Source: Escherichia coli
Lineage (GTDB): Bacteria > Pseudomonadota > Gammaproteobacteria > Enterobacterales > Enterobacteriaceae
DNA: 64,000 nucleotides
Strand: one strand, 5' to 3'
NCBI RefSeq assembly: GCF_041248615.1
Contig: NZ_CP158427.1
A program made the position numbers. Numbering within the stretch: position 1 is the first letter of the stretch; each line of letters begins with the position of its first letter. Shown here in pieces: positions 12,001 through 15,000 of this stretch.

Positions 12001-15000
12001 GTGAAGGTGGTTTGTTGCCGTGTTGTGTGGCAGAAAGAAGATAGCCCCGTAGTAAGTTAATTTTCATTAACCACCACGAGGCATCCCTATGTCTAGTCCA
12101 CATCAGGATAGCCTCTTACCGCGCTTTGCGCAAGGAGAAGAAGGCCATGAAACTACCACGAAGTTCCCTTGTCTGGTGTGTGTTGATCGTGTGTCTCACA
12201 CTGTTGATATTCACTTATCTGACACGAAAATCGCTGTGCGAGATTCGTTACAGAGACGGACACAGGGAGGTGGCGGCTTTCATGGCTTACGAATCCGGTA
12301 AGTAGCAACCTGGAGGCGGGCGCAGGCCCGCCTTTTCAGGACTGATGCTGGTCTGACTACTGAAGCGCCTTTATAAAGGGGCTGCTGGTTCGCCGGTAGC
12401 CCCTTTCTCCTTGCTGATGTTGTACGGGCATGAACAACCTGACTTCAGGAAGGTCGTTTCCCTTCAGGAACGGGGATGAACGCGCGCCTGCGGCGCCCGT
12501 TCTTTTCCCCCGCCTTCTCTGGTTATGGCCTGTCAGAAATCACATCACCTTCCCTGTGATTATTCTCTTTTTCTTCCTGCTCTGATTCTGACTACTGCAG
12601 TGTTGTCCTGTCTGCCGGGCGCACCTTCGGCTCCCGGCTGCCTGGCGGCATCCGGTCGTCAGGCCCGACTCCGACAGGCAGTTGCTGGCGCACCCGCCAG
12701 TCTCCGCCGAACCCGCTGGCGCGGTTTCGGGCTGTCGCTACGGTCCGATGCGTGAAAACCCCGGGCTTGCAGCGACCGTTCCGGTCGCGCCGCCTCTGTC
12801 GCGCCGTGGCCTGCGCTCCAGGCATCCCGGCAAAAAGACGCCGGGATGTAAGGCGCAACGCCGTTTCGCAAACCGCGCTTCACGTCGTTGCGGCGGGTCC
12901 CTGCCCGTTGTTGTGTCCGGTGCCATTCACCTGTTTAAGCCCCTGTCGCCGGGGGCTGATACAGCCACAACCTGCCGCACCTGTCCAGGGTAAATGAACA
13001 GCCCACAAAATTTTTTACCCAAAACCCGGTAAAAAATTTTGCGTTCTGCCCAGGACAGGTGCGTCAGGCCGTGGCAGTGATGCCCCATGCGGCGAAGGTT
13101 CTCAAACAGGTGATGGTGAATACCGGAGGGAACAAAGAGCAGGTCCCCGCAAAACGTCAAAACCGCGGCTCCCGAAACTCAACAGATGATGGGGGCTGAA
13201 AACCAGAGAGAGGAGAAAGCAGGATGAGTACCCGAAATATCCACGTTAACACCGCGTCGTACACGCTTCTTGTTGCCGGGAAGAAAAAAAACACCGGGGA
13301 AGAGTGGGACGTCCTGGAATTCAGCAGCCTGACTGAGCTGAAAAAATATCGCAAAAGCCACCCGGAAAAGATGGCCTTCAGTTATAGCTACGCGCTCAGT
13401 CAGGGTGTGGATAAGCAGTTCCGCCATATCAACATTGCGGAAGTCGATCACTTCAAACAGTTCCTGCGTCAGATTAAGCGTGCCGGCCTCGATATCCGGG
13501 CGATCTGCTGACCGGATGTGATGAATATCTCTCCTGATTGTTGCAATCTTGTTAATGGAGATCGGGGGGGGATGATATTAAGCGGAAAAATTTTTTATTA
13601 AATTTATTCTTTCATAAAGGAGTAGCTGTTATGCGATTAGCTTCCCGTTTTGGTCGGTATAATTCCATCCGCCGTGAACGTCCTTTAACGGATGATGAAT
13701 TAATGCAGTTCGTGCCTTCGGTATTTTCCGGTGATAAACATGAGTCCCGGAGTGAACGTTATACGTATATTCCAACAATCAATATCATCAATAAGTTACG
13801 TGATGAAGGTTTCCAGCCATTCTTTGCCTGTCAGAGTCGGGTTCGTGATTTGGGACGTCGCGAATACAGTAAACATATGTTACGTCTTCGCAGGGAAGGG
13901 CATATTAACGGACAGGAAGTTCCTGAAATTATCCTGCTTAATTCACATGATGGTTCATCCAGTTATCAGATGATCCCCGGAATTTTTCGTTTTGTCTGCA
14001 CAAATGGCCTGGTGTGCGGAAATAATTTTGGCGAAATCCGCGTTCCACATAAAGGTGATATTGTCGGGCAGGTTATCGAGGGAGCGTATGAAGTGCTCGG
14101 TGTCTTTGATAAGGTCACTGATAATATGGAGGCGATGAAAGAAATTCATCTTAACAGTGACGAGCAACATTTATTTGGCAGAGCTGCACTGATGGTCAGG
14201 TATGAAGATGAAAATAAAACGCCAGTGACACCTGAACAGATAATTACTCCCCGTCGTCGGGAAGACAAACAGAACGATCTCTGGACAACCTGGCAGCGGG
14301 TTCAGGAGAATATGATAAAAGGTGGATTATCGGGGCGAAGTGCCTCCGGGAAAAATACCAGGACAAGAGCCATTACAGGTATTGATGGTGATATAAGAAT
14401 CAACAAGGCGTTATGGGTGATTGCCGAACAGTTCAGAAAGTGGAAGTCATGATAATATAAGTAAAGCCCCGAAAAAATTTTCGGGGCTTTACTTATATTA
14501 TCATTTTTCGGCATTGCTGTGTCGTCTGATATACCTCAATTTCATCGACCGGCTTTCCGGTTGTCTGTAAATATTGTGCCCGCGAAAAATGGTCTGGCAG
14601 GAGGCTGCGCAGTTACCGGGTATATATAAGATGGGTTCCCGCTTCGCGGGGCTTCGGCCAGTCAGTATTGTCACTCATATGATATTTTTGTGTGTGGCCT
14701 TCCATGCTGCTTTTGCGGCATAACCGGTATCTGACAATGTCTGTAAGATTAATTATTCTGCACGCTGTTAATTTCCGGAAGTGATTTCTTCGTGGCCGGA
14801 AGCCGGATACCTTTACTGCTTTTTATCCCGGTATAAATCCGGTAAACCTCTGATGCGTAGGCAAGACGTCTCTGGTTCTGGCGTTCGGATTTCCTGAATC
14901 CTGCATTGTATGCACCAACGGCCTCCCAGGTGACGCCCCATTTTTTAAATGCTATTGCCAGATAATAAGCACCGGTATAAATGTTCATGCAGGGATCTGT

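Follow-up and report, generated by a model that had tools for sequence, protein, structure and literature searches.

Identification of the locus as hok/sok of plasmid R1

The locus directly downstream of psiA in the analysed 64-kb window (the whole stretch of DNA studied here) is almost certainly parB (hok/mok/sok) of plasmid R1, a locus for post-segregational killing. Positions 11868..12566 of the window are an exact substring of the R1 sequence NZ_KY749247.1 (100% identity), a BLAST search with 13 kb of surrounding sequence gives ~100% identity to the same record, and the 2.8 kb extending from psiB to a 95-aa ORF contain a single mismatch with respect to R1. Nothing differs within the locus itself (R1 hok/sok, parB; GenBank X05813), the mRNA isoforms of 441, 398 and 361 nt, the 64-nt Sok RNA, the 52-aa Hok and the 70-aa Mok all being the same. 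Judged by its sequence, nothing of which speaks against this reading, it is the hok/sok locus of R1, intact and unchanged, and as such is already fully known. The type I toxin-antitoxin system of the hok/mok/sok type, which had been proposed in a preliminary description of this DNA, was thus confirmed, every testable element of it being present.

The closest comparison besides R1 is offered by R100 (NR1; NC_002134.1), which shares the psiB-psiA-hok gene order and is identical to the window in the Sok gene and the hok coding sequence. The mRNA of R100 shows five differences from that of the window, one of them being an extra GC dinucleotide in the 3' UTR, between the end of the 361-nt form and fbi, which is absent from both the window and R1.

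In plasmid F (NC_002483.1), the same position after psiA is occupied by flmA/flmB/flmC, a locus of the same architecture that also has the tac and fbi elements, the 3' hairpin and the terminator, and that shares ~93-94% overall DNA identity with the locus of the window. The possibility that the window harbours the F allele rather than that of R1 was considered for these reasons; however, the distribution of the differences argues strongly against it. The 5' leader is identical over 61 nt (0/61 differences) and only 10 of 318 positions differ downstream, whereas in the antisense gene and its target 19 of the 64 positions differ, including five indel positions. Moreover, the F toxin has Tyr39, whereas Hok of the window has His39, and the identities to R1 and R100 given above point in the same direction. 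With both the FlmB/target sequence and Tyr39 of FlmA absent, the flm allele is refuted at the sequence level and the chance that it is present here seems negligible. The earlier mention of flm of F was therefore correct as to the family and wrong as to the allele, the window being of the R1/R100 type.

Extent of the locus and ends of the hok mRNA

Four published primers of R1 (Faridani et al., PMC1635323), all of which match the window exactly (4/4), were used as anchors to define the ends of the two RNAs. The full locus covers 11938..12414 and is wider than the span of 12030..12305 reported in the preliminary description, which includes the Sok gene and both ORFs and omits the promoter with the 5' leader (11938..12029) as well as the 3' UTR (12306..12414). 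The elements delimiting the transcripts are as follows.

11938..11967, plus strand: hok promoter from the promoter scan, -35 box TGGTCA (11938..11943), 18-nt spacer, -10 box TATGAT (11962..11967)
11974: hok F primer, defines the 5' end of the hok mRNA
11974..12414, plus strand: primary transcript of the hok mRNA, 441 nt, 5' end by the published hok F primer and 3' end by the published length
12035..12056, plus strand: sok F primer, defines the 3' end of Sok
12078..12098, minus strand: sok R primer, defines the 5' end of Sok
12321..12334: hok R primer, defines the 3' end of the 361-nt form
12375..12414, plus strand: intrinsic terminator from the inverted-repeat search, hairpin AAAGGGGCUGCUGG / CCGGUAGCCCCUUU (12375..12406) with a U-rich tail

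Isoforms of 441, 398 and 361 nt have been described for the hok mRNA of R1 (PMC1635323). In the window, their 3' ends lie at 12414 for the 441-nt transcript, behind CCCCUUUCUCCUUGC, at 12371 for the full-length 398-nt form, immediately past fbi, and at 12334 for the 361-nt form, which is mature and translatable, immediately past a G+C-rich hairpin. With +1 placed at 11974, 17 of the 18 numbered nucleotides of R1 (Le Rhun et al., PMC9841398) fall on the expected base, among them G4, C5, T6, A70, G71, C72, A106, T117, G118, G176, G311, T315 (Tyr48) and C358. The sole misfit is C345, which falls on a G at 12318, with a C located one base upstream (12317). The same numbering places T-12, A-11 and T-7, the sites of loss-of-function mutations in the hok -10 box TATGAT (PMC9841398), at 11962, 11963 and 11967, respectively.

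Coding frames of Hok and Mok

Both coding frames claimed in the preliminary description, a 52-aa Hok ORF at 12147..12305 and a 70-aa mok frame overlapping it at 12089..12301, were recovered, the former by retranslation and the latter as an exact entry of the ORF list.

12078..12081, plus strand: mok Shine-Dalgarno sequence GAGG, separated by 7 nt from the ATG of mok, as read from the sequence
12089..12301, plus strand: mok frame, ATG start, 70 aa
12132..12137, plus strand: hok Shine-Dalgarno sequence AAGGAG, separated by 9 nt from the ATG of hok, as read from the sequence
12147..12305, plus strand: hok toxin gene, 52 aa and a TAG stop (12303..12305)

The 52-aa peptide matches the NCBIfam profile NF007279 over its residues 1-52 of 52 with 126.4 bits (cut-off 73) and Pfam PF01848 over residues 8-48 (E = 1.3e-21). 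On the strength of this full-length profile match above the curated threshold, it can be assigned to the Hok/Gef toxin family. Its N-terminal hydrophobic helix, as read from the translation, comprises residues 8-25 and is conserved in nine homologues, as is the conserved cysteine C31 within the motif SLCEIR. For the Mok frame, the NF010277 profile gives 151.6 bits (cut-off 110). When the 64-kb window was searched by tblastn for further members of the Hok family, with Hok, SrnB and PndA as queries, no second ORF came to light.

The mok frame begins upstream of hok, covers it and possesses a Shine-Dalgarno sequence of its own, in which A106 corresponds to 12079; the change A106G abolishes translation in the mutational scan of R1 (PMC9841398). 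Nucleotides T117 and G118 of the same study place A116, the first base of the mok start codon, at 12089, and G176 likewise places A174 of the hok start codon at 12147. The loss of the stop codon, which adds 17 aa to the toxin (PMC9841398), agrees with the sequence of the window. When nine loci with identities down to 80% are aligned, namely the window, R100, F and plasmids of E. coli, Enterobacter and Klebsiella, the hok Shine-Dalgarno sequence proves invariant.

The ORF list, which goes down to 20 aa, shows hok as an ORF of 59 aa with a TTG start (12126..12305, plus strand), the ATG at 12147 being an internal one that yields the 52-aa peptide. The earlier statement that the locus is invisible to the ORF track is hence plausible in the case of hok, which even from its first TTG stays just under a 60-aa threshold, yet it does not apply to mok, as an ORF of 70 aa would be listed.

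Sok antisense RNA and its target

The position of Sok, inferred in the preliminary description, could be fixed by the published R1 primers.

12098..12035, minus strand: Sok antisense RNA, 64 nt, ends set by the published sok R and sok F primers
12078..12115, plus strand: Sok target (sokT) stem-loop around the start codon of mok, hairpin three in the Rfam alignment RF01794
12133..12105, minus strand: putative Sok promoter inside mok, -35 box TTGCGC (12133..12128), 17-nt spacer, -10 box TATCCT (12110..12105)

Sok of R1 is a 64-nt RNA with an 11-nt tail (PMC1635323), and the RNA of the window is built accordingly: 11 nt at its 5' end form a single-stranded tail, a long hairpin follows, and the 3' end is rich in U. 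Its predicted fold is a tailed hairpin of -26.5 kcal/mol (z = -5.3). The tail GACUAGACAUA is perfectly complementary to 12088..12098, around the AUG of mok, and the sokT loop UAUGUCUAGUC is complementary to this tail. With its 5' tail and terminator hairpin, the predicted RNA has the features of a cis-encoded antisense RNA directed against the mok translation-initiation region.

For the sok promoter, the search for which had been suggested along with the preliminary description, a candidate can be proposed. It was missed by the consensus promoter scan, in which it lies below the threshold because its hexamers match 7 of 12 consensus positions, and the candidate TTGCGC-17-TATCCT was placed by eye on account of its spacing to the published 5' end of Sok, the -10 box ending 6 nt before that end. 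In R1, the promoter of Sok has been described as strong (PMC1635323). The TTGC of the putative -35 box is invariant in the nine aligned loci, yet it overlaps the hok Shine-Dalgarno sequence.

The Rfam family RF01794, named "sok antitoxin (CssrC)", matches the locus over the full model with 88.9 bits (gathering score 59) at 11973..12149 on the plus strand. Since this is the hok-sense strand, the model describes the leader of the hok mRNA, from +1 to the hok AUG, rather than the antisense RNA; Sok itself is encoded within the same interval on the opposite strand. Other Rfam matches nearby (L25 leader, FGF1 IRES) fall below their gathering scores and were dismissed as chance.

In the RefSeq tables, Hok is given as a 41-aa protein starting from the GTG at 12180, and neither mok nor Sok is annotated. 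A megablast search with the locus matched at least 5,000 plasmid records, at least 1,453 of them at 99% identity or more. As the prototype of type I toxin-antitoxin systems, present here on the plasmid in which hok/sok was discovered, the locus matters little as a discovery. Its practical value lies in annotation because, with a shortened Hok lacking its two partners in RefSeq and the sense strand reported by the Rfam "sok" model, a full map of the elements prevents mis-annotation on thousands of resistance and virulence plasmids.

It might also be asked whether the locus is a decayed or silent copy, as is the case with several chromosomal hok loci, since, according to one report, chromosomal hok loci cannot bring about post-segregational killing (bioRxiv 10.1101/2025.08.07.668861), and one plasmid homologue was found to carry an in-frame stop at codon 49 of Hok. 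However, the window is identical to the experimentally active R1 in the promoter, the leader, both ORFs, the Sok gene and the 3' UTR, and the locus contains neither an IS element nor a truncation, which renders silence of this copy extremely improbable.

Predicted folding of the hok mRNA

The minimum free energy (MFE) fold predicted for the 398-nt hok RNA has -175.9 kcal/mol (z = -8.3). The following elements take part in it or border the mature form.

11974..11983, plus strand: tac (translational activator) GGCGCUUGAG, the first nucleotides of the mRNA, partner of 12360..12369 in this fold
12040..12048, plus strand: ucb, or anti-Shine-Dalgarno box, GAUAGCCCC, mRNA positions 67-75, which pair with 105-112 including the mok Shine-Dalgarno sequence
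12315..12332, plus strand: G+C-rich 3' hairpin GGCGGGC-GCAG-GCCCGCC, directly before the 361-nt end at 12334
12360..12369, plus strand: fbi (fold-back inhibitory) element CUGAAGCGCC, pairs with tac

The ends of the 398-nt RNA are predicted to be held together by pairing of positions 1-10 with 387-396, from G1-C396 to G10-C387, in which the 5' GGCGCUU meets the 3' AAGCGCC. G4, C5 and T6 of tac are needed for toxicity in R1 (PMC9841398). In the same fold, the mok Shine-Dalgarno sequence is sequestered by ucb, with G105, G107 and G108 paired with C75, C73 and C72. A70, G71 and C72, which have been named the mok anti-Shine-Dalgarno (PMC9841398), map to 12043..12045.

In the MFE fold of the 361-nt RNA, the pairing of tac with fbi is lost. 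A local 5' hairpin is formed instead of the published tac/ucb stem, although the ensemble is diffuse, this MFE structure having a frequency of only 0.0014 and thus being uninformative on this point. The complementarity named for that stem, G4-C72, C5-G71 and U6-A70 (PMC9841398), is present in the sequence of the window. Of the fold-back (tac/ucb) elements, named in the preliminary description as features to be checked, the predicted structure of the 398-nt form shows the tac/fbi and ucb/mok Shine-Dalgarno pairings.

When the 398-nt structure was projected on the nine aligned loci, 90.4% of the cells were paired as opposed to 34-45% in slid controls, a measure that is inflated by the derivation of the structure from one of the aligned sequences. 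Double-sided (compensatory) changes were counted in 14 pairs, compared with 0-6 in the slid controls, and are concentrated in the 3' hairpin and one helix in the coding region. The 3' hairpin (helix 14), which has been described as a "road-block" to 3' exonucleolytic trimming (PMC1635323), shows such changes in four pairs. In the nine loci, the tac/fbi helix (helix 1) shows no sequence variation and 100% pairing, and because of this invariance it provides no covariation information for or against the tac/fbi pairing.

Proposed mode of action

Post-segregational killing or plasmid stabilisation, as well as cleavage of the Sok-mRNA duplex by RNase III, have been demonstrated for the identical sequence of R1 (PMC1635323, PMC9841398). 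The parts named below are shown by the sequence and the predicted folds, and their dynamics are taken from that work. A stable hok mRNA starting at 11974 would be produced from the weak promoter at 11938..11967. As long as tac is paired with fbi in the 398-nt form, the RNA should be neither translated nor quick to bind Sok. According to the published R1 work, 3' exonucleases would then slowly trim the mRNA as far as the G+C-rich hairpin, giving rise to the 361-nt form that ends at 12334, and this trimming would free tac, refold the leader and expose the mok start region, whereupon ribosomes translating mok would reach the start of hok at 12147.

In plasmid-bearing cells, the abundant and short-lived 64-nt Sok would bind the refolded mRNA and block mok; with mok blocked, hok would be blocked as well, and the resulting duplex would be cut by RNase III, as found for R1. 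Sok has a half-life of about 30 s (PMC1635323, PMC9841398). In a plasmid-free daughter, it would accordingly decay within about a minute while the pool of hok mRNA persists, and Hok, a 52-aa membrane peptide, would then be made and the cell killed.

Genomic context

The location next to psiA in the leading region of F-like plasmids, as noted in the preliminary description, holds true for R1, R100 and F, to all of which the psiB-psiA-hok layout is common. The neighbouring features of the window are listed below, psiB and psiA both scoring well beyond their NCBIfam cut-offs.

10714..11151: psiB, upstream of psiA (NF010255, 274 bits)
11148..11867: psiA, directly upstream of the hok locus (NF010258, 422 bits)
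15341..15360, minus strand: F-type nic sequence, a single site without mismatch
15682: traM, beyond nic
16199: traJ, after traM

With nic on the minus strand, the minus strand is the transferred one and hok/sok lies ~3 kb inside the leading region, which confirms this location for the window.

A 638-bp repeat situated just downstream of hok/sok (12566..13203) recurs at 7170..7807 with 99.4% identity, 521 bp of it being exact, so that hok/sok is found within a 5.4-kb interval between the two copies. These repeats are of the Frpo type, matching Frpo1 and Frpo2, the single-strand promoters of F (Couturier et al., PMC9849209). In F, flmAB is located between Frpo2 and Frpo1 and may guard this interval against recombinational deletion (PMC9849209).

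The mechanism set out above could operate here with a main selected role other than maintenance of the whole plasmid, such as a safeguard against deletions, early establishment after conjugation or phage exclusion. The position between direct repeats, the same safeguard having been proposed for F, would fit the first of these; an enrichment of toxin-antitoxin genes, encoded on the T-strand, has been reported for leading regions (PMC11541004), and overexpressed hok/sok has been cited as protecting against T4 (bioRxiv 10.1101/2025.08.07.668861). However, the activity that has been demonstrated for precisely this sequence is post-segregational killing upon loss of the whole plasmid, and further roles would add to it rather than replace it. 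A different principal role is accordingly regarded as rather unlikely, and plasmid maintenance by the parB locus of R1 remains the preferred interpretation.

Still, it may tentatively be suggested from the geometry that the placement of the locus matters beyond killing upon plasmid loss, doubtful as this is at present. Segregants that delete the ssb-psiB-psiA block by recombination between the repeats could be killed by the locus, an idea that is already in print for F (PMC9849209). In addition, as the transferred (minus) strand serves as the template for the hok mRNA, whereas Sok requires the complementary strand, read-through of hok from the upstream Frpo could precede any synthesis of Sok. 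If so, safe entry would depend on the slow 3' activation of the hok mRNA.

A linear scan for promoter-like -35/-10 boxes in the Frpo-like hairpin found none. A third copy of the 638-bp repeat, 92% identical, is present at 3850..4474, and every copy contains a nested inverted repeat of ~190 nt. The single-stranded DNA fold predicted for the transferred strand of one of them (copy C) has -71.6 kcal/mol (z = -12.4).

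Allelic variation of the hok/sok locus

The differences between the R1 allele and the flm locus of F (L002) are not spread evenly but cluster where the antisense RNA is encoded together with the sequence that it targets: 19 of the 64 positions of 12035..12098 differ, compared with 0 of 61 and 10 of 318 positions in the flanking mRNA. Such clustering suggests that the recognition module has been under selection or has been exchanged. In addition, the allele shared by R1 and the window lacks a GC dinucleotide at ~12354 (GACT--ACTG) that R100, F and other alleles carry. The missing dinucleotide falls between the end of the 361-nt isoform and fbi, hence the two longer R1 isoforms are 398 and 441 nt rather than 400 and 443 nt in length.

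In the case of the hok homologue of Klebsiella plasmid pWP5-S18-ESBL-02_1 (L008), an in-frame TAA occupies Hok codon 49 (…FLAY*SAK), the position at which its near-identical relative L009 encodes Glu. The L008 product may be a C-terminally truncated toxin.

Annotation of hok and sok in public databases

The Hok protein listed by RefSeq/PGAP for R1, R100 and p1658/97 is 41 aa long (WP_001372321.1; GTG start at 12180, span 12180..12305), that is, 11 residues short of the experimentally defined 52-aa toxin, and both mok and Sok are missing from the gene tables. The Rfam family RF01794 ("sok antitoxin") matches 11973..12149 (+), i.e. the hok-sense strand from the mRNA +1 to the hok AUG. RF01794 is a model of the hok leader and not of the antisense RNA; if taken at face value, it therefore places Sok on the wrong strand and makes it ~2.5 times too long.

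Organization of the leading region

The sequence GCGTGGGGTGTGGTGCTTTT of the F-type oriT nic region has an exact match on the minus strand at 15341..15360, within, or at the start of, an SLT-transglycosylase ORF (14749..15396). Accordingly, the transferred strand is the minus strand, and everything below ~15350 constitutes the leading region. The latter harbours a ~630-bp element present as three direct copies.

Direct repeats of the leading region
3850..4474, copy A, 92% identical
7170..7807, copy B, 99.4% identical to copy C over 638 bp
12566..13203, copy C, 99.4% identical to copy B over 638 bp

Copies B and C share an exact stretch of 521 bp (7287..7807 = 12683..13203), and the 5.4-kb interval between them holds ssb, a ParB-like gene, psiB, psiA and hok/sok.

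Copy C contains a nested inverted repeat of ~190 nt (12927..13113, minus strand), for which the ssDNA fold of the transferred strand gave -71.6 kcal/mol (z = -12.4). A linear scan of this Frpo-like repeat revealed no -35/-10 pair. The repeat is followed downstream by a 95-aa ORF (13224..13511) and a DUF932 gene (13631..14452). In F, the Frpo1 single-strand promoter is situated upstream of ygeA/ygeB (PMC9849209), an arrangement matched by the inverted repeat of copy C and the genes downstream of it.

Other plasmid-encoded RNAs

Known plasmid RNAs in the window were called by Rfam at the gathering threshold.

Rfam matches to plasmid RNAs
16156..16265, traJ 5' UTR/FinP
38965..39050, AS-traG
47644..47720, AS-traI
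52651..52834, AS-pc02
54960..55050, CopA

These five fit a plasmid backbone of the IncFII R1 type.
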